Part shown: piece by piece, positions 13,070 through 41,219 of the stretch
Layout of the letters: each line of letters starts with the position of its first letter
How positions within the stretch are numbered: the first letter of the stretch is position 1
DNA from: Candidatus Magasanikbacteria bacterium GW2011_GWC2_37_14
GTDB taxonomy: Bacteria; Patescibacteriota; Patescibacteriia; Magasanikbacterales; UBA922
Direction: 5' to 3'
Assembly: GCA_000990355.1 (NCBI GenBank)
Contig: LBSX01000001.1
Coordinates: 3,392-67,391, forward strand
Length of the DNA stretch: 64,000 nucleotides
Notes under the pieces: model-generated
Database searches by the model: none
Told to the model about the DNA's origin: nothing
What the model saw: only the letters and a program-made list of their open reading frames with translations
Position numbers and translations under genes: made by a program

Positions 13070-13074
13070 CTGAC

Positions 13075-13560: not shown

Positions 13561-13575
13561 AACAAATACGTAATT

Positions 13576-14165: not shown

Positions 14166-14170
14166 AATTT

Positions 14171-17358: not shown

Positions 17359-17366
17359 ATTATTTT

Positions 17367-17479
17367 GTCATCCTGAATTTACCTGCCTATCGGCAGACAG
17401 GTTTCAGGATCTTTCTTAAAATAATATTTATTTAGTAAGTTAGATTAAGGGATAGATGCTGAAACAAGTTCAGCATGAC
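17367..17479. repeat. Bipartite palindromic element (copy of 14171-14283)
   Basis: ~120 bp near-identical to 14165-14290, including the AT-rich spacer. Confidence 0.8.
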
Positions 17480-18960: not shown

Positions 18961-20432
18961 ATTTTTCTCACCACTCCCTTGTCGGCATCCACCTCTACCT
19001 CATCACCATCATGCAAAACATCGGTAGCAACTTTGGTGCCAATTATACAAGGAACTTTTAGTTCACGAGCCACTATTGCCGCATGACAAGTAATGCCACC
19101 CAAATCAGTAATAATCGCCGCAGCCTTTTTCATGGCTGGCACAATACTCGGGTTAGTCATATGCGAAACCAAAATATTACCTTCATGCATTTTTGCCATT
19201 TCCTGAATTTTATTAATAATTTTTACTCTGCCAGTTACTTTACCTTTAAAAGCAGGCTGACCGGTAAGTTCTTGACTATTTTTTTGAATATTTTTTTCTT
19301 CAAAAAATTTCATTTTTGCTCGTATTTTTTTGGCTTCTTCTCCAGAATAATAAACCGTTTGTCCACGATCGGCAATATGCAAACTATATTTCATTCGCTG
19401 GCTGGCCAATTGTGACAAATCTTCACCCTTGATTAACACTCTTTCAAAATCTGTATGTGCCAAAAATCTAACCTGCTCCATGGTTAAATAAGTACGTTTG
19501 GCAACTTCTTTAAATATTTTATCCATTGAATAATATCCAAAAAACTGGGCGTCTTTACTTAAAAGACGGGTATAAAAAGAATCTTGGACAATTTTAAAAA
19601 TCTTTTGGTGTGTGGGATGAATATTATAAGTAGCAAAAATTTCTTTTTGCTGTCTTAAGGTTTCTTGCATCTCTTTTTTTAGATTTTCCAAAAACTTTTT
19701 AGCGCCTTTGTCTTTCAACTTATTCAACTCTTCATTAAAATATGCTTTATCCAAAAATTTTCCTTGTAAACCATATTCCAACCATTCGTATTTTTTTGTA
19801 TGCTTACTCAAAGCAGTTTCTTGTTTACTATTTTCAAGCAAAACAATTTTGGCTAATTCTTCTTTTTCTTTGGTCCAGATACTTTTTTCTTTTGGCACAC
19901 AAAGAATTTGAAAAGCATCATTGGGTTCAAGCTTCACTTCATTTTTAACATCTTGATATTTTTCTTGTAAATAATCTTGTAAATATTTGCTAAGCAAATT
20001 ATAGGGTGTTTCCAAAAACCACATTGGTCCGCGCGGGTCATGCACCAAAATTTGCTTTTGTTCAAACTTATTTATCCAGGTTAACAAATCTTTATTAGTA
20101 GCTTTTTTAAGATTAAGTGTTTGTAGATGCTTACCAAAAACAAACATTTCTTTGGCATACTTTTCGGTTACTTTATGTAGCCCATCCCAACGTTTGGGAT
20201 TGGTAAACATCCAAGAAAAAACCTCTTTATTGGTAGCATCAAAATGTTCTTTGGTAACAAAAAGATTACAACTAGAATTAATATATTCTGCGCCTAAATA
20301 ACGGCCGGGAATAAAACCCCAACGTTTTGGTAAATTGGTGGTAAAACCTTCCCAAGTAGCAGTTACAAAAAGATAATTTGCATAATCTTCTTTTTCTATT
20401 AATTGCCATTCTTTGTTGTATGGTATTTGCAT
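18957..20432 (-). CDS. PEP-utilising-enzyme His-domain protein, array paralog 4
   Basis: 491 aa; ...GQPAFKGKVTGRVKII...GGITCHAAIVARELKVPCIIGT. Confidence 0.75.
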   Translation of the reverse strand: MQIPYNKEWQLIEKEDYANYLFVTATWEGFTTNLPKRWGFIPGRYLGAEYINSSCNLFVTKEHFDATNKEVFSWMFTNPKRWDGLHKVTEKYAKEMFVFGKHLQTLNLKKATNKDLLTWINKFEQKQILVHDPRGPMWFLETPYNLLSKYLQDYLQEKYQDVKNEVKLEPNDAFQILCVPKEKSIWTKEKEELAKIVLLENSKQETALSKHTKKYEWLEYGLQGKFLDKAYFNEELNKLKDKGAKKFLENLKKEMQETLRQQKEIFATYNIHPTHQKIFKIVQDSFYTRLLSKDAQFFGYYSMDKIFKEVAKRTYLTMEQVRFLAHTDFERVLIKGEDLSQLASQRMKYSLHIADRGQTVYYSGEEAKKIRAKMKFFEEKNIQKNSQELTGQPAFKGKVTGRVKIINKIQEMAKMHEGNILVSHMTNPSIVPAMKKAAAIITDLGGITCHAAIVARELKVPCIIGTKVATDVLHDGDEVEVDADKGVVRKI

Positions 20433-20437
20433 AATAA

Positions 20438-20558
20438 TCTCGAGCCACAGCGAGAGATCCCTTTTCTATGAGATTAACTCGCTATATTAAATTAGTTGTT
20501 TAGTTAAATCGAAAGGGATTCCTCACCCCGCATTTGCGGGGTTCGGAATTATGGTGAC
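20438..20558. repeat. ~115-bp palindromic element; an inverted copy is at 58596-58703
   Basis: The reverse complement of 58596-58703 aligns almost base for base (atctcgagccacagcgagagatccc...gggattcctcacc...ttcggaat). Its end supplies the last codons (PNPANAG*) of paralog 5. Confidence 0.8.
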
Positions 20559-22013
20559 AACCCCCTTACTCGCATCCACCTCTACTATATCACCATCCTT
20601 CAACACTTTAGTAGCAATTTTAGTGCCGATCACACAAGGAATGTTTAGTTCTCTTGCTATTATCGCAGCATGACAAGTGAGCCCACCTTCATCTGTAATT
20701 ACAGCTTTGGCTTTTTTCATAGCTGGCAAAAATTCTGGTTGTGTCATACAAGCCACTAAAATGTCTCCTTCCTGCATTTTTACCAATTCACTTTCTCCTC
20801 TACATACTTTCACAGTACCAGTGACTTTACCCACAGAAGCACAATTACCTTTAATTTCAGTAACATCTTCAATTTCTTTATTTTTATTTAATTTAGACCA
20901 GAATAATTCTGCGTCCTTGCCTACAAACACCTTTGGCTCTTCCTGCGGAAGAAAAACATATAGACTACTCTTTCGACGTTTTTCCAACTCTGGCACAATC
21001 TCAGGTAACTGTTCCAATTCTGCTGGAAGAATATAGTGTAAGTAACTTAAAGGAATTTTAAATTTACTAGCTATTTCTTTTAAAATTAATTCTAAATAAA
21101 TGATTGACTGGGTCATGTATTCCTTACGGCGATCGTGAATAATAAATAAGGTGTCCGCGATCTCCAGAAGGTCTAATAATTCCTGATTTTCAATTTTTTT
21201 CATCAATTTTTTCTTCTCTGCCAATTTTTTTGGTAAACTCTCAAAATCATTGATAAATTTTTCAAAATCTACACCTTTATTGAACGTCTCCTTTAGCTCG
21301 GATACAAAATCTTTACTATCCAAAAATTTAGATGAAGTATAACTATTTAATTTCCAATAATACTTTTTTTGATGATGAAGAATCTTTTTAGCAATTTTTC
21401 TATTCGACAAAATTCCATCCATATCCACATCTTGCAAACCTTTCTTTTTTATCTCACGTGCAATCAAACATAAATTGTAATGTTCCCTCGATACGAACGA
21501 ATGAATAACGGGGGTAGTTAATAATAGTAGATCATTTTGACCACTAAACAATTCCTTAACCAACGTTCTTATTTTTTCCTCTGTAGTTAAAGTAAAACCC
21601 TCCACAATATGTGAAACACTAAGAAGATATGCATATAATTCATTTGCTTTTCCCCAAGCAGTATAAAGTTCTTCTAGTGACGCTGTGGACCATTCCTTTT
21701 TACCTAAAATCTTAAACTGCTTTAATGTTTTTTTACAAATTTTTTCATCAGATTTTAGTAAATAAAATAAAAAATTCTTACTACTTTTAAAACGTTCTTG
21801 TAACTCATTATTAATCCTATGTAAATCATCCCAACCATACAAAAAATAACACACATCATTTGAAAAATACTCTATACAAACAGAATAGCCAAAATTTAAA
21901 AATTTTGGCATATCTCTAACCATTGACCAAGCCGGGCCATGAAGTAGAGCAGGCACACCATTGAATCCCTGAAAATACCAACTTTTTTCAGTTAAATAAT
22001 TAATTTCTTTCAT
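20523..22013 (-). CDS. PEP-utilising-enzyme His-domain protein, array paralog 5
   Basis: 496 aa; ...GNCASVGKVTGTVKV...GGLTCHAAIIARELNIPCVIGT. The C-terminal tail is encoded by the repeat element. Confidence 0.75.
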   Translation of the reverse strand: MKEINYLTEKSWYFQGFNGVPALLHGPAWSMVRDMPKFLNFGYSVCIEYFSNDVCYFLYGWDDLHRINNELQERFKSSKNFLFYLLKSDEKICKKTLKQFKILGKKEWSTASLEELYTAWGKANELYAYLLSVSHIVEGFTLTTEEKIRTLVKELFSGQNDLLLLTTPVIHSFVSREHYNLCLIAREIKKKGLQDVDMDGILSNRKIAKKILHHQKKYYWKLNSYTSSKFLDSKDFVSELKETFNKGVDFEKFINDFESLPKKLAEKKKLMKKIENQELLDLLEIADTLFIIHDRRKEYMTQSIIYLELILKEIASKFKIPLSYLHYILPAELEQLPEIVPELEKRRKSSLYVFLPQEEPKVFVGKDAELFWSKLNKNKEIEDVTEIKGNCASVGKVTGTVKVCRGESELVKMQEGDILVACMTQPEFLPAMKKAKAVITDEGGLTCHAAIIARELNIPCVIGTKIATKVLKDGDIVEVDASKGVVTIIPNPANAG

Positions 22014-22024
22014 AAATAAATTTG

Positions 22025-23461
22025 TTAAATAACCCTTTTTATTATACCATTAAATGCATCCACCTCAACCACATCGCCATCATGTAAAAACTTAGTAGCA
22101 AATTCTGTACCAACCACACAAGGTATTTGTAACTCTCGCGCTACAATGGCTGCATGGCATAACATTCCCCCTTGATTAGTTACGATTGCTTTAGCTTTGC
22201 GAATCGCTGGTAAATAATCTGGATCAGTCATAGGACAAACTAAAATTTCTCCTTCTTCCATTTTATCAACTTCATCCATAGAATGTAAAATATTTACCAC
22301 TCCAGTTTCTTTTCCCTGCCAAATTGGTGTGCCTTGTAAAAATTCTATGGCCGGGACTTCCTTCTCAACAACTTGTAACAAGCTCTCGGCTTCCGAGCCA
22401 GAACAATGTAATACCTCTCGTTTGGAGCCCAAGACACAATAACTTTTGATTCTTCGATTCAATTCATCTACATCGGGTGATTGTCCATTCATTAACAACT
22501 TTTTTAACTCGCCAATGGTTAACATAAAGAGCTGATTATAAGACAAACCGTGTTCAGCGGCAATTTTTTTAAAAAAATTACGCTGGTGGGCACCGGCTAT
22601 AGAAATTACATCCCAATTTTCCTCTTTCAAGTCAGCTAAATCGCGCACAATATCCAAAAATTTCCAAGCTTCGGGGTATTTAATTTTTAAATCTTCTAAG
22701 ATTGTTTCTGCTTCTTGATGCTGTAACTCTTTTTTCTGAATTAATAATTTCAATTTTTCTTCTGGCTTTTCTTTACTCAACTTTTCTATTTCCTGGCGGT
22801 AATATTCTGCATTAAATGGCTCCGTCCACCAACATAGAGAATTAGTCCAGCCATAATCCGTCGCATGTTTTTTAAAATCTTCTGCAACATCCCCACCAGC
22901 TTTTAATTTTATGGCAATGTTTAATAAATTAATTTCTCCTAAAATTATTGGGAAGTCTTTTTTAGGCAAGGCCGCCTTGGCTACTAGCTCCGCTTGGCTT
23001 ATTTCTCTTCCAGCTAAATTAAATTTTTGTGGCAAATCCAAAAAAATTTCTTGCAAAGCTCCATCAGCTAACATAATACCAAGCCAATAACGGGTATGAT
23101 TAAAACTGGTAAGTAAATAATCTTCAATCTTCTCCCAAACCAAACTCGTTAATTGTATTCCTAAAAGTTTATCTCTGGAAGCATAAATTAATTTTTGATA
23201 ATCTTTTCTAAACTGCACAGAATCATTTTTTAAAATTTCTTTTACCTCCTGCACTCCCTCTCGATAATCTTCTTCCAAAATAAATTGACCATGACCTAAA
23301 ACTAAATAATATTTTGGTACATATGGCACAGTAATTTTAAAATCTCCATCAACAGCGTTGCGCGACATTCCATCTTCAAACATGCCAGTATGTTTCCATC
23401 GGCCAAACAAATGCCATTTATTATTTTTGATTATTTCTGTTTGATTCATATTATCTGTCAT
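22025..23461 (-). CDS. PEP-utilising-enzyme His-domain protein, array paralog 6
   Basis: 478 aa; ...GTPIWQGKETGVVNIL...GGMLCHAAIVARELQIPCVVGT. Confidence 0.75.
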   Translation of the reverse strand: MTDNMNQTEIIKNNKWHLFGRWKHTGMFEDGMSRNAVDGDFKITVPYVPKYYLVLGHGQFILEEDYREGVQEVKEILKNDSVQFRKDYQKLIYASRDKLLGIQLTSLVWEKIEDYLLTSFNHTRYWLGIMLADGALQEIFLDLPQKFNLAGREISQAELVAKAALPKKDFPIILGEINLLNIAIKLKAGGDVAEDFKKHATDYGWTNSLCWWTEPFNAEYYRQEIEKLSKEKPEEKLKLLIQKKELQHQEAETILEDLKIKYPEAWKFLDIVRDLADLKEENWDVISIAGAHQRNFFKKIAAEHGLSYNQLFMLTIGELKKLLMNGQSPDVDELNRRIKSYCVLGSKREVLHCSGSEAESLLQVVEKEVPAIEFLQGTPIWQGKETGVVNILHSMDEVDKMEEGEILVCPMTDPDYLPAIRKAKAIVTNQGGMLCHAAIVARELQIPCVVGTEFATKFLHDGDVVEVDAFNGIIKRVI

Positions 23462-23548
23462 CCTGAATTTATTTCAGGATCTTTTTTAAGTATTTTTTAT
23501 TTAATAAATCTAGATAACGAAAAGATGCTGAAACGAGTTCAGCATGAC
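23457..23548. repeat. Bipartite palindromic element (GTCATCCTGAA..TTCAGGATC / GATGCTGAAACGAGTTCAGCATGAC)
   Basis: Same two-hairpin architecture as 14171-14283. Confidence 0.7.
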
Positions 23549-25047
23549 AGCTTTCTGACAATCCCCGCCTCTAGATCCACCTCCACCCGATCACCATCCT
23601 TAAAAACTTGTAATAAATGTTTAACACCAATTAAACAAGGTTTATTGAGTTCACGAGAAACAATAGCTGCGTGACAAGTAAGCCCACCAGTTTGCGTAAC
23701 AATTGCCGCCGAACGACGCATGGCTGGCACATGGTCCGGTGTAGTATTACTAGAAAGTAGTATATCACCAGCCTCTACTTTGTTTATATCTTGATTAGAC
23801 ATGACGATTTTAACAATTCCTTGCACTTGTTTCACTCCTCCACCACAAGCAACTGTACCAGCAAATTCAGTTAGTTCCAAATCTACTTCTTCTACTTCTA
23901 CATTATCCTTCATCCATTGTTTGGCTTCTTCTCCTACCAAAATTTTATCACTGTCTTTTTCGGAAATAAGTAAAGCATAATTTAAACGCTGATTTAAAAT
24001 ATCGGCCTTGGGCAAAGGCAATTCATTTTTTAAATAAGCTTGTAATTCCGAAACTGCACACATTCCAAATTGACGAATAGAATAACTTTCTTTTTTGGCA
24101 AAAACAGCCAATAACTTATTTATAGTAAAACAAGCTAGTGCCATAAGATTCGCTCGATAAGCTTTGGTATAACCAAAATCCTGAGCAATAGTGACAAAAT
24201 ATTTTTCATCTTCGCTAAAACCCAATTGCTCCATTATTTTTGTTTGTTTTTGTAATAATTCTTGAAAATTATTTTTAATAATTTTTAACTGTTCACTAGG
24301 TTTAAGATTTTGTGACAAAATATGACTTATTTCTTCTTTAGCATTATTAATGTTATATTCTGGCCCTTTGTAGCCATAAAACACCCAACCATATTTTTCT
24401 ATTGCTTGTAAAATTATTTTTTTGCCATCGTCTGATAAATTATCTAACTTTTCTCCTTGTTCAAATAGCCAATCAGCTATTAAATATAATTCAACTTTTA
24501 AATCTTCGGTCCAAGTTGTGTTTCTCGGAGTAGTAAGAATAGACAAACATTCATTTGCCGACATTTCTACAACAGACAAATTTTTGTTTCTAATTATTTC
24601 GGCAATTTTATTACTCATTCCCCCACCACCTAATTCCACAAACGGCCCTACCATGCCACTGGTACAAATAGTACTAAATAATTCTAAAATTTTTAAAATA
24701 CTCTCTTTAATTTTTTCCTCGGTCATTTGTCCACTTTTAAATTCACCAAGTGTTTCATTACAAAGCAAATACAAACTTTGGCCATTTTTTAACAAATGAT
24801 CTTTTACTTGCTCGGCAAACTGGTGATCATTATTAATTTTTTGCCATAAATAATCACCAAAATCAAACCAACTTTCTTTTTCGGCAATGGCATTCATTAC
24901 TTCACCTTCTACTTGATAAACGAAAGTTTTTAAAATACGACCAGTTAACCTTTCTAAATCCTTATGAAAAAAACCACGAATAATTGGGTGTAAACCTAAA
25001 ATATTACAATTTGGTTCGGTGTTTACTATACAATATTGTTTGATCAT
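23539..25047 (-). CDS. PEP-utilising-enzyme His-domain protein, array paralog 7
   Basis: 502 aa; ...GTVACGGGVKQVQGIVKIV...GGLTCHAAIVSRELNKPCLIGV. Confidence 0.75.
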   Translation of the reverse strand: MIKQYCIVNTEPNCNILGLHPIIRGFFHKDLERLTGRILKTFVYQVEGEVMNAIAEKESWFDFGDYLWQKINNDHQFAEQVKDHLLKNGQSLYLLCNETLGEFKSGQMTEEKIKESILKILELFSTICTSGMVGPFVELGGGGMSNKIAEIIRNKNLSVVEMSANECLSILTTPRNTTWTEDLKVELYLIADWLFEQGEKLDNLSDDGKKIILQAIEKYGWVFYGYKGPEYNINNAKEEISHILSQNLKPSEQLKIIKNNFQELLQKQTKIMEQLGFSEDEKYFVTIAQDFGYTKAYRANLMALACFTINKLLAVFAKKESYSIRQFGMCAVSELQAYLKNELPLPKADILNQRLNYALLISEKDSDKILVGEEAKQWMKDNVEVEEVDLELTEFAGTVACGGGVKQVQGIVKIVMSNQDINKVEAGDILLSSNTTPDHVPAMRRSAAIVTQTGGLTCHAAIVSRELNKPCLIGVKHLLQVFKDGDRVEVDLEAGIVRKLSC

Positions 25048-25055
25048 AAACGTTT

Positions 25056-25147
25056 GTCATCCTGAACTTGTTTCAGGATCTTTAATAAAATAATATTTAT
25101 CTAGAAAATAATCTAACGAAAAGATGCTGAAATAAATTCAGCATGAC
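25056..25147. repeat. Bipartite palindromic element (GTCATCCTGAACTTGTTTCAGGATC / GATGCTGAAATAAATTCAGCATGAC)
   Basis: Same family as 14171-14283. Confidence 0.7.
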
Positions 25148-26586
25148 AGCTTAATCACTGTCCCACTCGTCGCATCCACTTCCACTGTATCTCCATCTTT
25201 TAAAACATAAGTAGCACTCTTGGTGCCAATTATGCAAGGAATGTGCAATTCCCGCGCCACAATGGCCGCATGACAAGTAAGACCACCTTGGTTGGTAACA
25301 AAGGCACTGGCTTTTTTCATAATTGGTAAAAGAGATGGATCAGTAACAATCGATACTAAAATGTCACCTTCACTAAATTTATTCATTTCTTCGGCTCGAT
25401 TTACAATTGATACTTTTCCAATTACCTTGCCTGGATAACCACACTCCCCTTTTAATTCATTAACTTGTTCAAGTTTTGGTAAAACTTTTTTTGCTGGCTC
25501 CACACACTTAACAGCCGCTTCGCCAGTTAACAAATAAATTTTTTCACCATCAAAATATCTTACTGAGTAATTTCCTAGTTCATTGATAAAATCATGTTCA
25601 AAACATCCTTTTTCCAACATTTCAATTAATAATGGCATTGTTATATTGTATATTTGTGCCAAAGAAAAATAATTATCTTTGGCTATTCTTTTTAAAATTG
25701 GTTGTATAGCTTCGTAACTAGAAAAAAGTGCATCCATGCGATAGGTTTTCATGAATAATAATTCTTCCATTTGTCTAAACAAAATAATTTCTGGTTCAGA
25801 AAAATTTAATTTATTAATCCAAAATTCTTTATCAACTAATAATTGCTGATCTTTTTCTAAAACTTCGGCTAATTTTTCCGCTCTACCTTCTTTTAACAAA
25901 CCTTTAGCCACCTCGGTAAAATATTCCAAACTTAAATTTGGACCAGTCCAACCAAAAGTAATCCAGCTAAACTTTTGCCAATGTTTGGTAATTTCTGTTT
26001 GATTATTATTTTCACTTACAATTTTTAGCATTTCTCGCTCTTCTTTTTGGGCTGCCGATAATTCCCGTGGTGTAGACAAAACTTGAAAGACTTTAATTAA
26101 TTCTTCACCTATTAAACCTTTTTCTTTTAAGATGTTTTTTAAATAATCCGATAATAAAGAATTTTCTAATTCCAAAACATTAGTAATTTGTCCCAAGGTC
26201 CAAACTGTAAAATGTTTTTCTTGGTATTTTTTAAACCAACCAACAATTTCTTCTTCACTTAGTGTCCCTACTTCTAACTTTTTTAATTCACTAGACAATA
26301 GATTTAATTCATCTGCAGCTTTTCTTAAATCTGCAGAAACACTAGCCAATTTATTTGGTTCTTGTATAACTTCGGCTAACCAACGTTTACCAATTTCTGT
26401 CCATTCAGAACGAGAAAACATTATTCTTTGAACATTTTTTTCCTGTTCCACAATCATTTGGCTTATCCCATAACCCAGTCTTTCTTTAATAGTAAAAGCC
26501 AAACCATCTACATATGCAGAATGAAACCAAAAAATATCATACCACTCACCAAACAAAAACCAATCTTTTACAGTTATTTTTTTCAT
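25138..26586 (-). CDS. PEP-utilising-enzyme His-domain protein, array paralog 8
   Basis: 482 aa; ...GECGYPGKVIGKVSIV...GGLTCHAAIVARELHIPCIIGT. Confidence 0.75.
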   Translation of the reverse strand: MKKITVKDWFLFGEWYDIFWFHSAYVDGLAFTIKERLGYGISQMIVEQEKNVQRIMFSRSEWTEIGKRWLAEVIQEPNKLASVSADLRKAADELNLLSSELKKLEVGTLSEEEIVGWFKKYQEKHFTVWTLGQITNVLELENSLLSDYLKNILKEKGLIGEELIKVFQVLSTPRELSAAQKEEREMLKIVSENNNQTEITKHWQKFSWITFGWTGPNLSLEYFTEVAKGLLKEGRAEKLAEVLEKDQQLLVDKEFWINKLNFSEPEIILFRQMEELLFMKTYRMDALFSSYEAIQPILKRIAKDNYFSLAQIYNITMPLLIEMLEKGCFEHDFINELGNYSVRYFDGEKIYLLTGEAAVKCVEPAKKVLPKLEQVNELKGECGYPGKVIGKVSIVNRAEEMNKFSEGDILVSIVTDPSLLPIMKKASAFVTNQGGLTCHAAIVARELHIPCIIGTKSATYVLKDGDTVEVDATSGTVIKLSC

Positions 26587-28028
26587 AATTTCTTAATTAT
26601 ACCATTAGTTGCGTCTACCTCAATTTGATCACCGTCTTTTAAAATCTTATCTGCTTGGGGTACGCCGACCACACAAGGAATTTTTAACTCACGGGCAACA
26701 ATGGCCGTGTGACAAGTAAGGCCGCCTGACTCAGAAACCATAGCAGCCGCCTTTTTCATTGCCGGCACCAAATTAGGGTTGGTATTGTGCGCCACTAAAA
26801 TATCACCTTCATTCATTTTAGACACCTGTTCTGGCAAGTTGATTATCTTAACTGTACCACGAACTTTTCCCGGACAAGCACAAGTGCCAAAAAGTTCGTT
26901 GCTTTCTTTTACTTTAATTTTTTCAAATTTAATTTTGCTCATGAATTCTTTATAAGCTTGACCTGTATACATTACATATTTTTTACCATCACAATACGCT
27001 GCACACTCTTTTAAGCGTTGGTTTAATTCATTTTCATCATATTGATGTTTTAATAATGCTGGGGCAATTTCCCAATGATTCATTGCCCTCACTTGATCGA
27101 GCGACAAACCTAACCTCTTGCCGATTTCTTTAAAAATAAAACTATAACAATACATACCATGATACAACGCCATTTTACGATATTCTTTAATATGTACCAT
27201 TTGCTGTGCAAGCTTAATAAGATCTAGTTGATACTGGTTAAATTTTAATAATTTTAAAAGGTTATTTTGCTCCTGCAACATCTGACGACGATCGGTGATA
27301 ATTTTTTTAAGTAATACTTCTCGTTTTTCACCCAACTCCTCTAACGATTGCCAACGCTCCAAATAGTCTTTTTTAGTATATGCTGGACCTTTAAATTGAT
27401 AAGGTAACCAACAATATTTTTTACAATGTTTATCAAGTTCTTCGATATTTTTTAAACGTAAAAAAGCCATTTCTTCTTTGGTTACAATACTCTGCTGCCG
27501 CGGCGTGGAAAGTGTGCTAAACACAATTGCTGGTATCAAATTTAACTTTTTTTGCTTAATTTGTTCACTAATCATTTTTAAAATTCCTTTACTTACCCGC
27601 TCTTTTTCACAATCTGCATGCCAAGAAACAGATGGACCAATACCATGAGAATAATAATGAAATTTATATGACAAAAGAAAAACTTTAATTAAATCTTTGG
27701 CTGATAATTTTTTTAAATTATATTTTAATTGTCTGTCTGAAGCTTTAAAAAATTCAGTAGACCATTTTTCTACTTTAAGAATAATTTTTAATGCCCAATC
27801 AGGGTTGGCCAACATTTTTTTAGCCAAAAAATCTGCTTCAGCATCAAATTCTTTCCGCAGATAGCACATTCTAGAAAAATCACCCTGGTACCAAGTAAAA
27901 TAATGTTTAACTTTGCCGCCCAAACCAAATTTGGGCCACAGCTTAAAGGAGCCTGTCATTGTTACACCCATTACAAATGGGGTATTCTGGGTAATTTCAG
28001 CAATTACACACCAAGAATTTTTTTTCAT
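26583..28028 (-). CDS. PEP-utilising-enzyme His-domain protein, array paralog 9
   Basis: 481 aa; ...GTCACPGKVRGTVKII...GGLTCHTAIVARELKIPCVVGV. Confidence 0.75.
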   Translation of the reverse strand: MKKNSWCVIAEITQNTPFVMGVTMTGSFKLWPKFGLGGKVKHYFTWYQGDFSRMCYLRKEFDAEADFLAKKMLANPDWALKIILKVEKWSTEFFKASDRQLKYNLKKLSAKDLIKVFLLSYKFHYYSHGIGPSVSWHADCEKERVSKGILKMISEQIKQKKLNLIPAIVFSTLSTPRQQSIVTKEEMAFLRLKNIEELDKHCKKYCWLPYQFKGPAYTKKDYLERWQSLEELGEKREVLLKKIITDRRQMLQEQNNLLKLLKFNQYQLDLIKLAQQMVHIKEYRKMALYHGMYCYSFIFKEIGKRLGLSLDQVRAMNHWEIAPALLKHQYDENELNQRLKECAAYCDGKKYVMYTGQAYKEFMSKIKFEKIKVKESNELFGTCACPGKVRGTVKIINLPEQVSKMNEGDILVAHNTNPNLVPAMKKAAAMVSESGGLTCHTAIVARELKIPCVVGVPQADKILKDGDQIEVDATNGIIKKL

Positions 28029-29107
28029 ATTTTTTTTATTATACCATTAATGGCATCCACTTCTACCATATCGCCATCTTTTAAAACTTTAGTGGAAATT
28101 TTGGTTCCAGTGATACAAGGGATATTTAATTCACGCGCCACAATTGCTGCATGACAAGTAATACCACCTTCGTCAGTAATAATTGCCTTAGCTTTTTTCA
28201 TAATCGGGATAAAAAAAGGATTTGTCATAACCGTCACAAGGACATTTCCTTCCTTAAAATTAATAATTTCATCATTTTTTAAAATAATATTGACAATTCC
28301 TTTTATTGAGGTTGATCCGGTACAAGAAACCACCCCTCTAATTTCTTGATTGATAAATTGATTAACAGGTGCGGAAAAATAAAAATCTTGTTTTTCAAAA
28401 AAAACTTCTTTTGAAATATTAGTATATACTTTATCACCTAAAAAAATATAACCTGTAGAACGATTCTCTAATTCCTCTTTATTGGGTACATAATTATTAT
28501 CATCAAGCATTTTTTGAATTTCTGTAAAAGTTACAAAAGAAGCATATTTATTTTCCAGTTTTCTTTGCGATAATAAAATTCTAGCCACTGCTCGCCAATA
28601 CTGTACCAATTCTTGAATGGCACCTTCTGATTTTACTCTAGCATTTATCAGGCGTTCTAAAATATCATTTGCTTCTTTAGGATATTTTTCTTTAAGCTGT
28701 GGGGCCCACTGTGCCTGTGGCAATAAATAACTTACTGTATACCAAGGGTACATTTCTCTAGAGAGTTGTTTTATTTTTTCAAATACTGCTCTGTTTGCAA
28801 AATCTTTATTTTTATTAATCTTCCCCATTAATTCACGTATTTGTTTGACCAGTAGAATATAATGATTAATTTTATTTTCACTGAAAAAACCATTTTTAGG
28901 ATCGGTATTTACTACCGCTTTAAAAAAGGCTTTGGCTTCATCAACTACTCTATAAGTTTCCAACAATCGTCCATTAAAATAATATAACTGACTAGGAATG
29001 CCTATTCCAAAAACCTCCATGAGCCTTGGATTCATTTGTCCTGACCACCACTCTGCCCAAGCCAATGTATAATCGCGAGTCCAAGCTAAAAAAATTTCTT
29101 TTTTCAT
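28025..29107 (-). CDS. PEP-utilising-enzyme His-domain protein, array paralog 10 (short N-domain, 360 aa)
   Basis: ...GSTSIKGIVNIIL...GGITCHAAIVARELNIPCITGT. The N-terminal region is ~120 aa shorter than its siblings. Confidence 0.7.
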   Translation of the reverse strand: MKKEIFLAWTRDYTLAWAEWWSGQMNPRLMEVFGIGIPSQLYYFNGRLLETYRVVDEAKAFFKAVVNTDPKNGFFSENKINHYILLVKQIRELMGKINKNKDFANRAVFEKIKQLSREMYPWYTVSYLLPQAQWAPQLKEKYPKEANDILERLINARVKSEGAIQELVQYWRAVARILLSQRKLENKYASFVTFTEIQKMLDDNNYVPNKEELENRSTGYIFLGDKVYTNISKEVFFEKQDFYFSAPVNQFINQEIRGVVSCTGSTSIKGIVNIILKNDEIINFKEGNVLVTVMTNPFFIPIMKKAKAIITDEGGITCHAAIVARELNIPCITGTKISTKVLKDGDMVEVDAINGIIKKI

Positions 29108-30561
29108 AATTTTCTAATTATACCATTAATTATATCTACTTCCACTATGTCACCGTCTTTAAATACTTTGGTGCCAATTTTTGTACCTACCAAACAAGGA
29201 ATGCCAAGCTCACGAGAAACAATGGCTGCATGAGACAATAATCCCCCTTCGTCCGTAACAATGGCTCCTGCGCGCTCCATAGCGGGCACTAACGTGGGAT
29301 TGGTAGCTGGTGCAATCAAAATATCGCCTTTGTTTACTTTTTTAGCGTCGGCATCGCAAAGCACCAACTTTACTATTCCTGTGATCACTCCAGGCGAAGC
29401 ACCTTGACCACTTAACTCGATAATATTTTCATACTTTTCTATTTTCAATTCTTGTTTTTTATATTCTTCAAGTTTTTTACCAGAAAGCACAATAACTTTA
29501 TTACCTTCTAAAATAATTGCACTTTCAATTACTCGTTCATTTAATTTTTCTAAAGATAAAATTAATTCTCCACGATTTAAACTGTCTAAAATTTCTACAC
29601 CCCGCATTTCAATCAATTGTTTGTATGACATTCCTAAACGTCTGGCAATTTCATTAAACAATGGTTTTAAATTTACAACTGTAAAAGTAAAAACCTCGTC
29701 TACCAAACTATAAGCTGAAGCTTGAGCGCGAGCCGATTCAATATACTTAAGAATATTTTCTGGTAAATCTAATTCATTAATAAGCAATTCTCGCTTACTT
29801 AAATCATTTTCTAATTGTTTTATTTTTTGTAGTTCATTTTCAACACCATTATTCAATACTTCTTTAATTCTTTCTAAAATAATATCTTTATTATACAATT
29901 CACCGCGAAAATAATACTGCCCTAAATAAGCAAATTTACATAAATGTGTACTCACTAAATTTTCTAATTCTTGATTATAACCATTATCTTCTACAAACTT
30001 CGCTAAATTTAATAAAAAAAATTTTTCTTGCCTTGTTTCTGAAGAATCTTCTAATTGTAGTAAGATATTAAAATCTTCGTTTTGTTTATTAATATTTGGT
30101 TCTTTTTTAGCAATCTCGGCAAAAATTAAATCCGGTAAAAATTTATTAGTAATAATGGCGTTGTAAGCAAAAGCCCACATTTTACGAGTACAAGCTAAAT
30201 ATTCGGAAAAATTTATAAACAACACTTCTGTTTCTTGTTCAGACCAATTAAGATCTTTTATTTGTAAAACAAAATCTTTTAATTGCTTAATGCGTCTTTT
30301 ATATTCATTGGCGTATTCTAGCAAAGCACCAGGATTAGCAAGTTCTTTTTTACGAAAAAAATCACAAAAATCTGCTAAATTCTCTGAACCAAACCAACGA
30401 GCCCCAGCTAATTGCCGAAAGTTTTGAGGCTTAAATTCGGGCTTATTAAAGTCTAAACCTAAAAATGCCATAAATCCCTCCATAGCAGTGTCAATCAAAA
30501 GCAAGGCATGATTTTCGCCTCTACGAGTAATTTCCTCCCAAATTAGCTTACTTTCGGCCAT
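29104..30561 (-). CDS. PEP-utilising-enzyme His-domain protein, array paralog 11 (variant GGLLSHAAIVSREL)
   Basis: 485 aa; ...GQGASPGVITGIVKLV...GGLLSHAAIVSRELGIPCLVGT. Confidence 0.7.
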   Translation of the reverse strand: MAESKLIWEEITRRGENHALLLIDTAMEGFMAFLGLDFNKPEFKPQNFRQLAGARWFGSENLADFCDFFRKKELANPGALLEYANEYKRRIKQLKDFVLQIKDLNWSEQETEVLFINFSEYLACTRKMWAFAYNAIITNKFLPDLIFAEIAKKEPNINKQNEDFNILLQLEDSSETRQEKFFLLNLAKFVEDNGYNQELENLVSTHLCKFAYLGQYYFRGELYNKDIILERIKEVLNNGVENELQKIKQLENDLSKRELLINELDLPENILKYIESARAQASAYSLVDEVFTFTVVNLKPLFNEIARRLGMSYKQLIEMRGVEILDSLNRGELILSLEKLNERVIESAIILEGNKVIVLSGKKLEEYKKQELKIEKYENIIELSGQGASPGVITGIVKLVLCDADAKKVNKGDILIAPATNPTLVPAMERAGAIVTDEGGLLSHAAIVSRELGIPCLVGTKIGTKVFKDGDIVEVDIINGIIRKL

Positions 30562-30637
30562 ATATAGCTATTTTAGCCAAATAATCTATAAAAATCAAGA
30601 GAAAAACAAAAACAGTCTATTTCTTCAACAGACTGTT

Positions 30638-32356
30638 TTATTTCTCCAAATCACTCCACATACTCTCATCATCTTCTTTTGGTTTGTCGCTAGCAAAAAA
30701 TGGTTGATTCGTATTCGGCACAGAAACTGCTCCACCAGAAGCTTTCTTTTTATGACGCTTACGTTTTTTCTTTTTAAAAGGTTCACTAGTTAAATTAGTC
30801 TGAGTATTTGTTACAACAACATTATTTATGATTGGCTTATTAAAAACTGGAGATTCTGCTATTTTTATTGGTTCTTCCTTGGGTAATAACTTTGATAAAG
30901 ACAATGTTTCTTCTGGTTCACTAACAGGCACTGCTAATTTTTTAATTAATTCACTAGGAGAAATTTTTGATTCATCTACCACTACCACTGGCTCTTTATG
31001 CTCCAATTCTAATTCTTCACCATCTTCATTTTCCTCTACTTCCATACCACTCCAACGTAAAATCTTTTCTTCAATAACTTCGCGCGGTTTACCATAACGT
31101 TCACGAGAAACTCTAACTATTTTTTCGGCACTATCAGTTGGCTGGCCGATTGGTGGCATGGTAATGGCAGAAAAGGGTTGCGAAGCCACACCATCAATCA
31201 TTAATTTCATAATGATGTGAAATTTAGGCAAATTTAAAATTTCTTCTGGCAAATAGGTTGGCATGTATTCTTTTTCAAAATATTCTGCATCTGGTCCACC
31301 AATTCTAAAAGTAATCATGGTACCGACGTTACCAAAAACAGCATCCGACACCAGTTCGTCTAATTGGGCTACATATTGATGTGCCATAATTAAACTTAAA
31401 CGATATTTACGAGCTTCGGACAAAATATTGGCAAAACTTGGTGTAGCAAAATTTTGAAATTCGTCTACATACAAAAAGAAATCCTGACGTTCTGCTTCTG
31501 GAGTGTCTACTCGTTCCATAGCCGAAAGCTGGATTTTGGTAATAAGCATTCCACCCAAAAGACGTGAATTATCTTCGCCAATTCTACCTTTTGAAAGATT
31601 GATAATAAAAATTTTCTTTTCATCCATTATTTTACGAACATCTATGGTAGATTTGACCTGAGCTACCATATTGCGAATAACACTGGCCGATAAAAACTGG
31701 CCGATTTTATTTTGTACAGCGGCCACAGCTTCGGTAGCATATTTTTCACTATAACTGGCAAATTCCTGTTCCCAAAAAGATTTAATTACTGGGTCTTTAA
31801 CTGATTTAACTACTCTTGCTCGATACTTTTTATCGGACAACATGCGATTGATACCCAGCAATGTAGAACCCGGATGTTCTAAAAGCGCCAAAATAGTATT
31901 GTTTAAAATGTACTCCATGCGAGGACTCCAAACATCGGGCCAAATCTTTTTAAAAGCTGCCATAAGACCAGCAGCTACCAAGTGCTTTTGTTCTTCAAAT
32001 TGGACTTCTAGAATATTGAAACCAATTGGATAGTTAGTATCAGCAGGATTAAAATAAATTACATCATTAATCCGATTGGCAGGAATATAATTAATAATTT
32101 TTTCGGCAAAATCTCCGTGAGGATCCACTACGCCCACACCATGACCAGCATAAATATCATGAAGCACCATATTTTCCATCATCGTAGTTTTGCCCATGCC
32201 TGTTTTACCAATTACATACATGTGACGCCGGCGGTCATCTAGTTTAATACCAAAACGACGCAATTGGTTGCGATAGGCAGTTTGAGCAAAAAAACAAATA
32301 TCTTCTTTTTCCTTTGGGACAACTACACCCTTGGTTGTAAGATGTTGAAGAGGCAC
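30638..32356 (-). CDS. VirD4/TraG/TrwB-like (FtsK-HerA superfamily) P-loop ATPase with K-rich disordered C-terminal tail
   Basis: Walker A at VIGKTGMGKTTMM, Walker-B-like FFLYVDEFQNF. C-terminal ~120 aa are acidic then lysine-rich (KKKKRKRHKKK). The track start is a GTG. It sits 76 bp upstream, in transcription order, of the 11-gene array. Confidence 0.5.
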   Translation of the reverse strand: MPLQHLTTKGVVVPKEKEDICFFAQTAYRNQLRRFGIKLDDRRRHMYVIGKTGMGKTTMMENMVLHDIYAGHGVGVVDPHGDFAEKIINYIPANRINDVIYFNPADTNYPIGFNILEVQFEEQKHLVAAGLMAAFKKIWPDVWSPRMEYILNNTILALLEHPGSTLLGINRMLSDKKYRARVVKSVKDPVIKSFWEQEFASYSEKYATEAVAAVQNKIGQFLSASVIRNMVAQVKSTIDVRKIMDEKKIFIINLSKGRIGEDNSRLLGGMLITKIQLSAMERVDTPEAERQDFFLYVDEFQNFATPSFANILSEARKYRLSLIMAHQYVAQLDELVSDAVFGNVGTMITFRIGGPDAEYFEKEYMPTYLPEEILNLPKFHIIMKLMIDGVASQPFSAITMPPIGQPTDSAEKIVRVSRERYGKPREVIEEKILRWSGMEVEENEDGEELELEHKEPVVVVDESKISPSELIKKLAVPVSEPEETLSLSKLLPKEEPIKIAESPVFNKPIINNVVVTNTQTNLTSEPFKKKKRKRHKKKASGGAVSVPNTNQPFFASDKPKEDDESMWSDLEK

Positions 32357-32362
32357 AGTGAA

Positions 32363-32404
32363 GTTAAAAGTTTATAAAGTTAAAAGTTTATAAAGTTAAA
32401 AAGA
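32363..32404. repeat. Tandem direct repeat (gttaaaagtttataaa x2 plus partial) in the upstream region of the ATPase/array locus
   Basis: aagttaaaagtttataaagttaaaagtttataaagttaaaaag, immediately 5' (minus-strand sense) of the ATPase start. Confidence 0.5.
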
Positions 32405-32471
32405 TCTTTGAAACTTTAAGAACTTCGGACTAGTTTAATTATAACACAAAAATATACAAATCACTAGATTT

Positions 32472-33656
32472 TTAGCCAAACATTAGCCAACTGGGTTTAA
32501 AGATAAGTAACAAACCCAAAAGCAACATTAATATTCCCCCAATTAAAGCTGAGTACTTGCCATATTTACCACCAACAACTTTGGACTTTAGGGTTACCAT
32601 GGCAATCACAAAAACAATCATGTCATCTAGCATATAAAAAACAATGTAGCCAACCATATAAAGATACTTTTGCCACATTGGTAAACCACTTAAAGCCAAT
32701 ACTTGGGTATAAACTGCAGGGAAACCAGCAGAACAAGCTAATTCTACAAGATTTACCGAAAAACCAAGAAGTAAAATACCAACAATTGACCATAACAAAC
32801 TTTTACGATAAACAATCGCCTTAATTTTTTCAAAAGTTTTTTTGGTATCTTTTAAATCCGAGACTTTACAAGCCAAAGCTTCGGCTTTTCTGTTTAACCA
32901 CCATTCACGCAAATTAATTCCACCAGCACCAATTGCCACCAAACCAATGACAATTCTAATGGTAGCAATCATGCCTAAAAACAACAAAAGCTGAAGCCAA
33001 GCGGCCATAAAAACAAAATAAACTGCACCAGAAGCCACAATAAATAGCGATCCCAAAAGCCACATTCTTTTTCTATTTTCCATGCCCAAGAGTAATGTTA
33101 TTAAAAATAACAATGCCCACATAGCGCAAGGATTAAAGCCATCTAACAAACCAATAATCACTGTTAAAAGTGGCAAAGAAAAAGTTTTAGGATTGATTTC
33201 TCCTAAAATAGGGATATTGATTTTATTAGTATTAATTGTTTCTGTAGTTTTAGTCTGTATTAACCCTTTAGTTTGTAATTTTTGTTCAATAATCTGGATT
33301 ATTTCTTTCCCAGTAGTTTTGTCTGTACCATATCCAGAAACTGGTGTGCCATCGATAAAAGCAACGGGAACCGAACCTACAGCGGTAAAATATTTATTAC
33401 CATACTCTTCAAATAATTTAGCATTCTTTTCACCACTTACTTCATATAAATGAAAATCTAAATATTGTCCATAAAGCGGAAAAACCTTTTCATTCAAAAA
33501 TTTTATTTCTGCTTGACAATGAGTACAAGTTTCCAAATGAAATAAAGTATATTCAACTTTATTGACAGAATTTGTGGTTTGGGCCAATACAAAATTTGGT
33601 AAAACCATTAAGCCCAACAAAAATGTTATTATAAAAATATAAAATAGTTTTCTCAT
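32472..33656 (-). CDS. Thioredoxin-like (CxxC) periplasmic domain fused to a CcdA/DsbD-family transmembrane thiol-disulfide transporter
   Basis: Signal/TM segment, then CTHC in a Trx-like segment, then a polytopic domain with conserved Cys pairs in TM (NPCAMWAL, VELACSAGFP), typical of CcdA/DsbD. Confidence 0.5.
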   Translation of the reverse strand: MRKLFYIFIITFLLGLMVLPNFVLAQTTNSVNKVEYTLFHLETCTHCQAEIKFLNEKVFPLYGQYLDFHLYEVSGEKNAKLFEEYGNKYFTAVGSVPVAFIDGTPVSGYGTDKTTGKEIIQIIEQKLQTKGLIQTKTTETINTNKINIPILGEINPKTFSLPLLTVIIGLLDGFNPCAMWALLFLITLLLGMENRKRMWLLGSLFIVASGAVYFVFMAAWLQLLLFLGMIATIRIVIGLVAIGAGGINLREWWLNRKAEALACKVSDLKDTKKTFEKIKAIVYRKSLLWSIVGILLLGFSVNLVELACSAGFPAVYTQVLALSGLPMWQKYLYMVGYIVFYMLDDMIVFVIAMVTLKSKVVGGKYGKYSALIGGILMLLLGLLLIFKPSWLMFG

Positions 33657-38496: not shown

Positions 38497-39939
38497 TTAA
38501 GCAAAAGGTAAATTGTCGTCGTAATTTATATGTCCAGCATCGGTGGTATAACCAATTTTTGGAGATTTTCCTTCTTCGATTTTTTTTGTTCTATTTTCTC
38601 CACTAGCCCAAACTGGATTTAAAAGCGATTCGACTGGTAAGCCTGTTGGAGGTTCTGATTGTTTGGCAGCCGCTTTTTGCAATAACGGAGTTTTTACATG
38701 CGACATTGGAAAATGCCAAAGTGTGGCTAATTCCATTATATTTAAAACATAAGGATTGGAACCAGCTTTGATTTTTCTTTTTTTGTAAGCTTTCATTAAT
38801 AAATTTTTACGATAATTAATAATACTTTTGGCAAAAAATGAGGTAGCGGCTGTTTTGTAAACTGCAGCCAAAGAATTAGCGTTGGGAATGTTGAATTGGG
38901 AAACCGCACCCATAAGAGCATGAACCCCACGTTCTTTTCTAAATACTTCTTTACGAGCTACATAGAGCCCACGCATTTTGGTTTTAAAACCAGTTTTTTG
39001 AATTTTATTTTCCATGCCCTCAATTAATTTGCCCTGCCCTGGGGATAATTCCTTTTTCTCTTCTTTTTCGTGTTCTTCTGCTTCTCCACCTTCGCGACCA
39101 AAAACTTGATCGCCAATAAATTCCAATGTTTTTAAAGTTGCGTCTGGTAATTTATCCAAAGCGCCAGACAAACCTCCGCCATGAGCATGCCCAACACCAG
39201 CAATTTCTTCAATTTTTTCTATAACTTCTTCTTTCCAATGATTGGAAATGGGCTCGACAATTATTTGAAACCACATTTGTTCACCAGAATTTAAACGAGC
39301 AAAACTTTCCAAAAAAGTACCCATGGGATCTTTTAAAACAGTATCCTTGGAAATTTTATGTTCAAATTCCTCGTAAGTACGTATAGGATATGCCCAATTT
39401 TCTGTGGGTCCAAAATCCGCAGCCCACATTTCGTATTCTTCGTTGGGAAATACATCCGGCAAATTTTTTACATAATCCTCTACTTCAACAATTTCGGCAT
39501 CAGGGTATTGGGCGTAAACTGCAGTTTCTACCAAATCACGGAATGTTTTTTCGGTACGTACCAAAAATTGAATATAACCTTCAATACTAATAACCTCAAA
39601 ACTAAACCACTGTTGTTTAAAACCATGCCAATACTTTTCGGTAATATCCACATGATTAAAAGCTCCGGAAATTTGACTGAACATTTGCTCTACTGCCATT
39701 GGCGTTTGGATATTTAAGGCTGGGATATCTATGGCCAAGACTTGCCATTCCCAATTATGGGTAAATTTTTCTTGACGATAATTTACCCATAGAAGTATTC
39801 CCGCATTGATAACGAAATAACCAAGAATAACCCAGCCACCAATTATAAATAAATCAAAAATTACTTTTGCTGGTGCTTGAGCAAAAAAGATAGACAAAAA
39901 ATTAAAATCCCAATTAACTGAATAAAAACCAAGATCCAT
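38497..39939 (-). CDS. hypothetical membrane-anchored protein
   Basis: 480 aa with N-terminal TM segments; no recognisable motif. Confidence 0.4.
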   Translation of the reverse strand: MDLGFYSVNWDFNFLSIFFAQAPAKVIFDLFIIGGWVILGYFVINAGILLWVNYRQEKFTHNWEWQVLAIDIPALNIQTPMAVEQMFSQISGAFNHVDITEKYWHGFKQQWFSFEVISIEGYIQFLVRTEKTFRDLVETAVYAQYPDAEIVEVEDYVKNLPDVFPNEEYEMWAADFGPTENWAYPIRTYEEFEHKISKDTVLKDPMGTFLESFARLNSGEQMWFQIIVEPISNHWKEEVIEKIEEIAGVGHAHGGGLSGALDKLPDATLKTLEFIGDQVFGREGGEAEEHEKEEKKELSPGQGKLIEGMENKIQKTGFKTKMRGLYVARKEVFRKERGVHALMGAVSQFNIPNANSLAAVYKTAATSFFAKSIINYRKNLLMKAYKKRKIKAGSNPYVLNIMELATLWHFPMSHVKTPLLQKAAAKQSEPPTGLPVESLLNPVWASGENRTKKIEEGKSPKIGYTTDAGHINYDDNLPFA

Positions 39940-40295: not shown

Positions 40296-41219
40296 TTAGC
40301 GACTGCGACGATCAAATCTAAACCATTCTACCAAGAGTGGCGAAGCCACAAAAATTGAAGAATAAGCACCTAAGAAAATACCTACAAGCAAAGCTAGAGT
40401 AAAGTTTTTAATAGTTTCACCACCAATAAAATATAATACTGCCAATGTAAGTAAAGTGGTTAAAGTAGTATTAATTGAACGAGCAAAAGTTTGATTTATA
40501 GCTACATTTACAGTATCAGGAAAATTTTCCGCACTATGACGAATTAAATTTTCACGAATACGGTCAAAAACTACAATCGTATCATTTACTGAATAACCCA
40601 AAATTGTTAACAAGGCCACTACAAATGGTATGTCCACTTCTATACCGGCAAAATGACCCAAAAAAGCAAAAACACCAGCGGTAATTGTAACGTCATGAAA
40701 TAAAGCTACAACAGCTACTAATCCATACTTCCATGAAGCTACTGGACGAGAAACTTTTCTAAATGAATAAGCAATATACAAAATAATACCCACAACTACT
40801 ACAAACAATGCATAAAGTGAACGAGACTTTAATTCTTTACTTACTGCAGGACCAATAGTTTCAAAACGTACTTCTAAGACTTTGTTATTATCTTTTTCAA
40901 AATCAGTGCGTATTTTATTTAATACTTTGGTATGATCAGCATCACTTAAAAATGGCATTTTTACAATTAACCCTTTTTCATTGGTTTCTTGTACAGAAAT
41001 ACTACCCAAAGACAAACTTTCAATACTAGCTTTAACTTCGGTAACTACTGGTACATTTTCTGTAAAACGTGTTTCTAACAATGAGCCACCTTTGAAATCA
41101 TTACCAGTTTTTAAGCCAAAAACCAAAAGAGCAACCACACTTACCACAAACAAGGCTCCGGACAAAGCCAAATTAATATAACGATGTTTAATAATATTTA
41201 CCATATAATTATTGATCAA
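40296..41219 (-). CDS. secF: protein translocase subunit SecF
   Basis: 307 aa; 6-TM SecF topology and motifs. Overlaps secD by 11 nt. Confidence 0.85.
   Translation of the reverse strand: MINNYMVNIIKHRYINLALSGALFVVSVVALLVFGLKTGNDFKGGSLLETRFTENVPVVTEVKASIESLSLGSISVQETNEKGLIVKMPFLSDADHTKVLNKIRTDFEKDNNKVLEVRFETIGPAVSKELKSRSLYALFVVVVGIILYIAYSFRKVSRPVASWKYGLVAVVALFHDVTITAGVFAFLGHFAGIEVDIPFVVALLTILGYSVNDTIVVFDRIRENLIRHSAENFPDTVNVAINQTFARSINTTLTTLLTLAVLYFIGGETIKNFTLALLVGIFLGAYSSIFVASPLLVEWFRFDRRSR

Follow-up and report, generated by a model that had tools for sequence, protein, structure and literature searches.

The gene at 30638..32356 on the minus strand of a 64,000-nucleotide stretch from Candidatus Magasanikbacteria bacterium GW2011_GWC2_37_14 (GenBank contig LBSX01000001.1, positions 3,392 to 67,391; the whole stretch is called the window below) encodes a P-loop ATPase of the VirD4/TrwB-type coupling-protein class, qualified by the lack of a transmembrane (TM) domain, and represents a family carried by nearly all Patescibacteria. 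The explanation that best accounts for the evidence as a whole, to which a probability of about 0.6 is given, is that of a separately transcribed soluble ATPase that is recruited by a membrane-anchored protein of the PF26449 family and is unrelated to the array of 11 paralogs lying downstream of it. An initial annotation of this DNA had recognized the coupling class, which is borne out, and had taken the ATPase to be co-transcribed with the array and functionally linked to it, for which no support was found; its own alternative, an ATPase that is simply an unrelated neighbour, is the better reading on the evidence of the adjacency and of the gap between the genes. The features of the ATPase gene, in window coordinates, are:

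30638..32356, minus strand: coding sequence of a P-loop ATPase resembling type IV coupling proteins (T4CP; VirD4/TrwB-type), without TM domain (open reading frame, Pfam)
32183..32209, minus strand: Walker A, GKTGMGKTT, residues 50–58 (most residues invariant in a 25-sequence alignment)
31448..31471, minus strand: Walker B, YVDEFQNF, residues 296–303 (all residues invariant in the same alignment)
30641..31048, minus strand: disordered C-terminal tail, residues 437–572, 136 amino acids (composition, model confidence)

The reading frame codes for 572 residues from a GTG start. Two observations make this start credible: an in-frame stop is found five codons 5' of it, and the starts of homologs align with it, as 'MPxxxL' or, at loci L007, L008, L011 and L013 (L numbers denote the loci compared), as GTG-encoded 'VPxxxL'. 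A hypothetical protein recorded in GenBank for Candidatus Magasanikbacteria GW2011_GWC2 has the same sequence (100% identity). Its tail runs from an acidic stretch (residues 437–500, with 18 D/E and 7 K/R) through a polybasic run (14 K/R in residues 501–572, including KKKKRKRHKKK at 528–538, nucleotides 30743–30775) to an acidic end containing a tryptophan. The predicted local distance difference test (pLDDT) of the AlphaFold2 model is below 50 over residues 437–486 and 490–572, nearly the whole tail, and therefore fits the predicted disorder. The tails of homologs differ in sequence, with recurrent K/R runs, and many of them share a near-terminal motif 'P-D/G-x-h-h-x-F-(D/E)'. The reading frame, the GTG start, both Walker motifs and the long, disordered, acidic-then-polylysine C-terminus of the initial annotation are thus all present.

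The assignment to the coupling-protein class comes from profile searches. The Pfam model TrwB_AAD_bind matches with 50.6 bits (cut-off 20.5) over residues 41–351, followed by T4SS-DNA_transf (34 bits, cut-off 20.1), DUF87, the HerA central domain (32.9 bits, over its cut-off), and TraG-D_C (28.4 bits, cut-off 22); the three profiles that had been proposed as a check on the class (TrwB_AAD_bind, TraG-D_C and DUF87) all score above their cut-offs. The TraD/VirD4-like equivalog models of NCBIfam remain below threshold (43–45 bits, cut-offs 250–366). Among solved structures the top match is TrwB, with an E-value of 4e-5 for the single sequence and 4.8e-6 for the profile, and DotL comes next. No Pfam match to FtsK_SpoIIIE was obtained at E ≤ 0.01, and no FtsK or SpoIIIE chain appeared among the solved-structure matches (sequence search at E ≤ 1, and profile search). 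The features of an FtsK protein, a match to the FtsK_SpoIIIE motor and TM segments, are both lacking in the ATPase, and the grouping with housekeeping FtsK/SpoIIIE that would have spoken against the coupling class finds no signal.

The AlphaFold2 model of the ATPase (mean pLDDT 58, core 60–83) has a RecA-like core into which, between the Walker motifs, an all-helical segment is inserted (residues 121–245, pLDDT 60–83); the TrwB_AAD_bind match covers this segment. Foldseek searches with this model returned Cag-beta, TrwB, DotL and HerA at similar significance (~1e-8), the top match being the HerA-NurA complex (2.5e-9); TM-scores to TrwB are 0.33–0.45. Walker A starts after just 49 residues and the protein has no TM-like segment, a situation that is the same across 86 homologous loci. 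These 49 residues hold no N-terminal barrel of the HerA type either, and no NurA-like neighbour was seen at the ATPase loci examined. The architecture matches that of a recognized subfamily, 'T4CP lacking TMD' (TM domain), in which a second, membrane-bound protein serves as the partner (review PMC7434980).

A candidate for such a membrane protein emerged when the neighbours of the ATPase gene were clustered in 81 loci. At all 45 informative loci outside the Magasanikbacteria a gene of the PF26449 family lies immediately upstream of the ATPase gene on the same strand, with a gap of ≤180 nt at 44 of them (at most loci ≤10 nt, or an overlap); further upstream in these classes follow a Sigma70_r4/HARE-HTH gene and secD/secF. 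A profile of the upstream family built from the other classes matches one reading frame of the window with E = 1.3e-128:

38497..39939, minus strand: PF26449-family protein of 480 amino acids with N-terminal membrane anchor and cytoplasmic domain, the probable partner of the ATPase (Pfam, profile, synteny)

This reading frame carries a precomputed Pfam assignment to PF26449, and its TM-like segments occupy residues 14–53. No fusion to the ATPase occurs in the best 150 of 1,791 representative PF26449 homologs, none of which is long enough. The AlphaFold2 model of the protein (pLDDT 71, pTM 0.65) gave 12 Foldseek matches at E ≤ 1e-3, all of them to TrwK/VirB4 of R388 (from E = 3.7e-5, probability 0.99–1.00). 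From this we infer a VirB4-like fold for the cytoplasmic domain, probably corresponding to the N-terminal part of VirB4. No meaningful match came from Pfam and NCBIfam searches at relaxed E-values with the protein and 33 of its homologs, and no literature was found on DUF8128 or PF26449.

In Magasanikbacteria the PF26449 gene and the ATPase gene are separated by 5–9 kb through an inserted dnaG-rpoD-SOD-mem394 segment. The last of these genes, mem394 (32472–33656, minus strand; 394 amino acids, no Pfam match), is the immediate upstream neighbour of the ATPase gene and is conserved 5' of it only in this class. It was considered as the membrane anchor of the ATPase and ruled out by its absence outside Magasanikbacteria, its CxxC and its polytopic layout. 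Mem394 begins with a signal-like sequence, carries a CTHC motif and has six TM-like segments that include an NPC motif, and by reading only it resembles thioredoxin-fold or DsbD/CcdA-like thiol-disulfide membrane proteins.

The ATPase family is vertically inherited, chromosomal and Patescibacteria-wide, and its core shows the same degree of conservation as RpoD. A homology search yielded more than 8000 proteins, many of which bear the name 'type IV secretion system DNA-binding domain-containing protein'. In species-representative genomes, relatives were confirmed at 546 of 599 candidate stretches; the best 80 are 57–81% identical and come from many Patescibacteria classes. Within the class the identity of the core is 74–81%, and the same genome pairs give 71–81% for RpoD, 53–62% for DnaG, 48–65% for AlaRS and 42–59% for MnmA. 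The genes of the window are housekeeping or uncharacterized (alaS, mnmA, an EPSP_synthase-family gene, dnaG, rpoD, SOD, secDF, secA, murB and Mur-ligase genes), and Pfam scans of its main reading frames detected no VirB4, VirB6 or relaxase. An association with a secretion channel or relaxase, typical of coupling proteins, is therefore not seen here, and the conserved neighbours in relatives are secDF, the HTH protein and PF26449. The ATPase gene is a core chromosomal gene and not a gene of a mobile element.

A family of this kind has been noticed before. Quinonero-Coronel et al. (2025) counted 5,713 VirD4-type homologs in 2,918 Patescibacteria genomes, of which 148 lie near virB4; they raise exaptation as a possibility and describe the coupling-protein homolog of S. 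epibionticum as non-essential (PMC12102498). Their homologs are very probably the same family as the ATPase of the window, which is an ordinary member of this orphan, functionally unassigned coupling-protein-like family; the missing TMD, the PF26449 partner, the secDF neighbourhood and the RpoD-level conservation are not mentioned in the sections consulted.

The relation of the ATPase to the downstream array was approached through the gap between them and through the adjacency in relatives. The 11 paralogs (14274–30561, minus strand) have in common a PEP-utilizers swivel domain at the C-terminus, in which the catalytic His motif GGxTCHAAIV is found; their N-terminal parts are diversified and show no hydrophobic signal. 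The first of them (29104..30561) is separated from the ATPase gene by 76 nt on the same strand, as had been annotated initially, and this gap contains two predicted elements:

30599..30639, minus strand: terminator-like hairpin with 13-bp stem, 5-nt loop and U-rich tract, beginning at the ATPase stop codon (consensus scan, folding)
30570..30598, minus strand: promoter-like site before the first paralog, TTGATT-17-TAAAAT (consensus match only)

The hairpin folds at −29.5 kcal/mol (z = −5.2; 0 of 200 shuffles as stable) and the −10 element of the promoter-like site ends 8 nt before the ATG of the first paralog. The predicted terminator sequence is identical in the relative L167, and an analogous hairpin and promoter are found at L010. 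Together, the hairpin and the promoter-like site contradict the co-transcription of the ATPase with the 11 paralogs.

The adjacency itself is largely not conserved and is confined to part of one class. Members of the paralog family lie downstream of the ATPase gene, always on the same strand, at 9 of 32 other informative Magasanikbacteria-type loci and at none of the 47 loci of other Patescibacteria classes. In six of the nine array-bearing loci a Carb_kinase gene (NAD(P)H-hydrate dehydratase) is placed between the two. In the reciprocal test, for which 35 of 80 metagenome loci with the paralog family were informative (≥2.5 kb upstream of the first member), the ATPase gene was met at a single locus (L102). 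The array occupies a variable slot of a synteny block of the Magasanikbacteria that reads orf480-dnaG-rpoD-SOD-mem394-ATPase-(variable slot)-mnmA-(DUF4153)-alaS. Arrays are most commonly accompanied by a stand-alone PPDK_N ATP-grasp protein (~311–360 amino acids; Pfam 3e-96), which is present beside many array loci. The 11 PEP-utilizer paralogs are thus most likely unrelated neighbours of the ATPase.

According to the proposed explanation, an intact, separately transcribed gene would yield a soluble ATPase made up of a nucleotide-binding domain with intact catalytic motifs, a helical domain inserted into it and a charged, disordered tail. If TrwB, VirD4 and TraD are a guide, it most likely forms a ring-shaped, NTP-driven motor at the membrane, to which it would be brought by the separately encoded PF26449 protein and not by a domain of its own, in the way proposed for TraJ of pIP501 and its partner TraI. 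Through its polybasic run and the aromatic/acidic motif near its end, the tail would dock a substrate for translocation or an adaptor, a role known from TraD and DotL. The paralogs would fill a variable slot of a housekeeping synteny block and have the stand-alone PPDK_N ATP-grasp protein as their own partner.

Several observations weigh against this explanation. The structure of the ATPase cannot separate a coupling protein from HerA, since the model is weak (pLDDT 58) and its best matches are tied. The terminator and the promoter in the 76-nt gap are predictions from the sequence. The array-bearing loci are scattered over a neighbour-joining tree of the Magasanikbacteria ATPases, for which an old placement of the array in this class followed by repeated loss is the simplest reading; L001 and L029 retain the order of ATPase and array despite a differing upstream synteny, and the first paralog starts only 12 nt (L018) and 9 nt (L102) after the ATPase stop. 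The last two observations are some evidence for a link between ATPase and array, which may be specific to the lineage. As to the partner, the TM-scores of the PF26449 model to TrwK/VirB4 are low (~0.3, from one model only), and the VirB4 likeness has no support from sequence profiles, the profile search against solved structures being empty; it is for these reasons that the fold is worded conditionally here. Finally, the PF26449 gene and the ATPase gene are 6.1 kb apart in the window, and within 10 kb upstream of the ATPase no PF26449 gene is present in several Magasanikbacteria relatives, so that their linkage is dispensable.

The model put forward in the initial annotation, a coupling ATPase co-transcribed with the 11 His-domain paralogs, which it hands over to a secretion machine as cargo or effectors, would amount to a new effector system if true. 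The common strand and the short gap in the window speak for it, as do the co-oriented, always downstream position of the array in nine other Magasanikbacteria lineages, the gaps of a few nucleotides at L018 and L102 and the order maintained at L001 and L029. The evidence nevertheless points away from this model, which is considered very improbable: the gap holds a strong hairpin of the terminator type and also a promoter-like site, the adjacency is missing from 23 of 32 Magasanikbacteria loci and from 47 of 47 loci of other classes, and the ATPase accompanies only 1 of 35 informative arrays. A housekeeping Carb_kinase gene intervenes at six loci, the paralogs keep GGxTCHAAIV and, devoid of an N-terminal signal, look like cytoplasmic enzymes whose recurrent neighbour is the PPDK_N ATP-grasp protein, and genes of a secretion channel are absent from the window. 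A further rival reading is a HerA/FtsK-like DNA translocase acting in chromosome handling or repair with no role in secretion. The DUF87 score above the cut-off, the HerA-NurA complex as top Foldseek match, a polybasic tail that could bind DNA and the position beside dnaG and rpoD in Magasanikbacteria would suit this role. It is judged quite improbable, given that TrwB_AAD_bind (50.6 bits) and T4SS-DNA_transf (34 bits) outscore DUF87 (32.9 bits), that the HerA-type barrel, a NurA-like neighbour and any FtsK_SpoIIIE match in Pfam or among solved structures are missing, and that the position beside dnaG and rpoD results from a derived insertion particular to this class, with a membrane protein next to secDF as the ancestral neighbour.

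The ATPase could also be the missing coupling protein of an essential type IV secretion system that Patescibacteria encode elsewhere in the genome, feeding protein or DNA substrates to it. The coupling-protein domain set found by Pfam fits this role, no coupling protein is recognizable in the type IV secretion cluster of Saccharibacteria (PMC10633639), coupling-protein genes often lie away from virB4 (PMC12102498), and the PF26449 partner has a predicted VirB4-like fold. Set against this, the same paper gives the secretion system of S. epibionticum as essential and its coupling-protein homolog, a putative member of the family, as non-essential; a conservation at the level of RpoD is unusual for coupling proteins; and the conserved neighbours of the ATPase are secDF and a sigma-region-4/HARE-HTH gene rather than genes of a secretion system. 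This reading is regarded as unlikely. A broader proposal, which we would sooner doubt than affirm but offer tentatively, is that PF26449 and the anchorless VirD4-like ATPase constitute one two-gene motor, ancestral to Patescibacteria, encoded beside secDF and conserved at the level of the primary sigma factor. PF26449 would be an anchor resembling VirB3 and the N-terminal part of VirB4, the motor would be either the coupling ATPase missing from the essential type IV secretion system or an independent translocase of the envelope connected with epibiotic life, and in Magasanikbacteria the pair would have been split by the dnaG-rpoD-SOD insertion. Patescibacteria depend on envelope machines for life on host cells. 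The near-universal pairing of ATPase and PF26449 is the sole interesting lead of this analysis and gives genetic work in cultivable Saccharibacteria two concrete genes to aim at.

Among the known systems that resemble the ATPase are the coupling proteins without a TM domain, for example TraJ of pIP501 with its partner, the small membrane protein TraI (PMC7434980). Both have a VirD4/TrwB-type nucleotide-binding domain with a helical insertion, a predicted one in the ATPase, both lack an N-terminal TM domain and both have a separate membrane protein as presumed anchor. Unlike the plasmid-borne traJ, the ATPase gene is chromosomal, near-universal and highly conserved across a phylum-level group, and no relaxase or secretion-system genes lie near it in the window; the presumed PF26449 partner, with ~440–480 amino acids and a predicted VirB4-like cytoplasmic domain, differs from the small TraI. 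Walker A and B are common to the ATPase and to TrwB (R388), VirD4, TraD and Cag-beta, the TrwB_AAD_bind match extending over residues 41–351, whereas the two N-terminal TM helices of these proteins are absent from the ATPase and its tail is polybasic. Canonical coupling-protein tails are mostly acidic. TraD and DotL use a C-terminal docking tail, and the tail of the ATPase could serve likewise. VirB4/TrwK are the sole structures matched by the PF26449 model, with no similarity detected at the sequence level. TrsD of pGO1, a split relative of VirB4, is described in PMC12102498 as a protein that stands alone and has a remote relationship to the N-terminal part of VirB4. PF26449 differs from VirB4 and TrsD in being paired with a VirD4-like and not a VirB4-like ATPase, and in having its own N-terminal membrane anchor.

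The 5' region of the ATPase gene contains two further features:

32438..32479, minus strand: promoter-like region of the ATPase gene, TTGGCT-17-TATATT with the extended −10 element TGTGTTATAAT overlapping (consensus scan, sequence reading)
32361..32401, no strand assigned: 16-bp unit repeated perfectly in tandem (2.6 copies) within the 5' leader of the ATPase gene (TRF score 82)

The extended −10 element TGTGTTATAAT lies at 32438–32448, and TGnTATAAT-like elements occur 5' of the ATPase gene in most Magasanikbacteria relatives. At L167 such an element ends only ~8 nt before the ATPase start codon, likewise before the first paralog in the window, and no Shine-Dalgarno sequence is visible at either start; for these two reasons leaderless or near-leaderless mRNAs are suggested for this lineage. 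The repeat, placed between TGTGTTATAAT and the GTG, has a period of 16 and 100% identity, and each unit contains the palindrome TTTATAAA, which is also similar to a −10 box. It had been annotated as two copies and is real and perfect. As it is the sole perfect tandem with period 10–30 and ≥2.5 copies in the window, and nothing comparable arose in 30 first-order Markov simulations, it goes beyond chance. It is found identical only in the same-strain contig L169 and is absent from the two closest relatives, L167 and L168 (ATPases 93% and 88% identical). Tandem repeats are not enriched in ATPase leaders (10 of 33, compared with 179 of 482 other leaders; p = 0.83). This lack of enrichment and the absence from the two relatives rule out a conserved regulatory repeat. 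Rfam (gathering thresholds) and ARAGORN found no match across the whole window, so that no RNA element accounts for the repeat or for the G+C-rich region described below. The repeat is most likely a recent strain-specific slippage duplication, and a conserved function is not indicated.

A comparison of L167 (1763–1967) with window positions 30350–30640 showed that the terminator, the gap and at least 120 nt of the first paralog are 100% identical at the DNA level. As the ATPase proteins of the two loci are 93% identical, this points to a recombination boundary close to the 3' end of that gene.

The question of the array is redirected by its own surroundings toward a split phosphotransfer system of the PPDK/PEP-synthase type, in which it looks like one ATP-grasp protein serves many His-domain proteins. 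The PPDK_N protein is the expected phosphoryl donor for the swivel His domain. This split arrangement was noted for the window and for L088, L091, L094, L095, L100, L101, L103 and L108, and also for L117, L143, L145, L149, L157 and others; a tblastn search found no PPDK_N homolog within the 64 kb of the window. At L008 and L012 a PPDK_N gene lies downstream of the ATPase gene and paralogs are not detectable. One paralog of the window is short (28025–29107, minus strand, 360 amino acids) and has orthologs of ~350–365 amino acids in many arrays, such as those of L007, L010 and L036, and further in those of L102, L117 and L157. The recurrence of short forms in many arrays argues that they are not truncations and that the arrays comprise two subfamilies, long and short. 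The paralogs at 14274, 17470, 23539 and 25138 (4 of 11) share the C-terminal tetrapeptide KLSC; in the remaining ones the swivel domain is followed at once by a terminal KKI, KKL or RKL.

At the distal end of the array, a reading frame of ~274 amino acids (12043–12867, plus strand) has a visibly high G+C content in a genome of ~34% G+C; the bin 12001–14000 reaches 48%. No Pfam, Rfam or tRNA match was obtained for it, and it adjoins a DUF559 endonuclease-like gene (13129–13497). The region could be foreign DNA or an assembly chimera. Short G+C-rich hairpin elements, for example gtcattcccgcgaaggcgggaatc and cctccttacgaaggagg, are scattered in the intergenic regions around this end (~11918–11982, 13070–13130, 13500–13555 and 14170–14215), and a similar element follows the ATPase stop at L168. 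They resemble REP-like intergenic repeats. Elsewhere in the window, SecD (41209–43254, minus strand) has a PPIC-type (parvulin) peptidyl-prolyl isomerase domain inserted between its P1 subdomains, and the same insertion is present in the SecD of a distant Patescibacteria relative (L039, 5406–7454).

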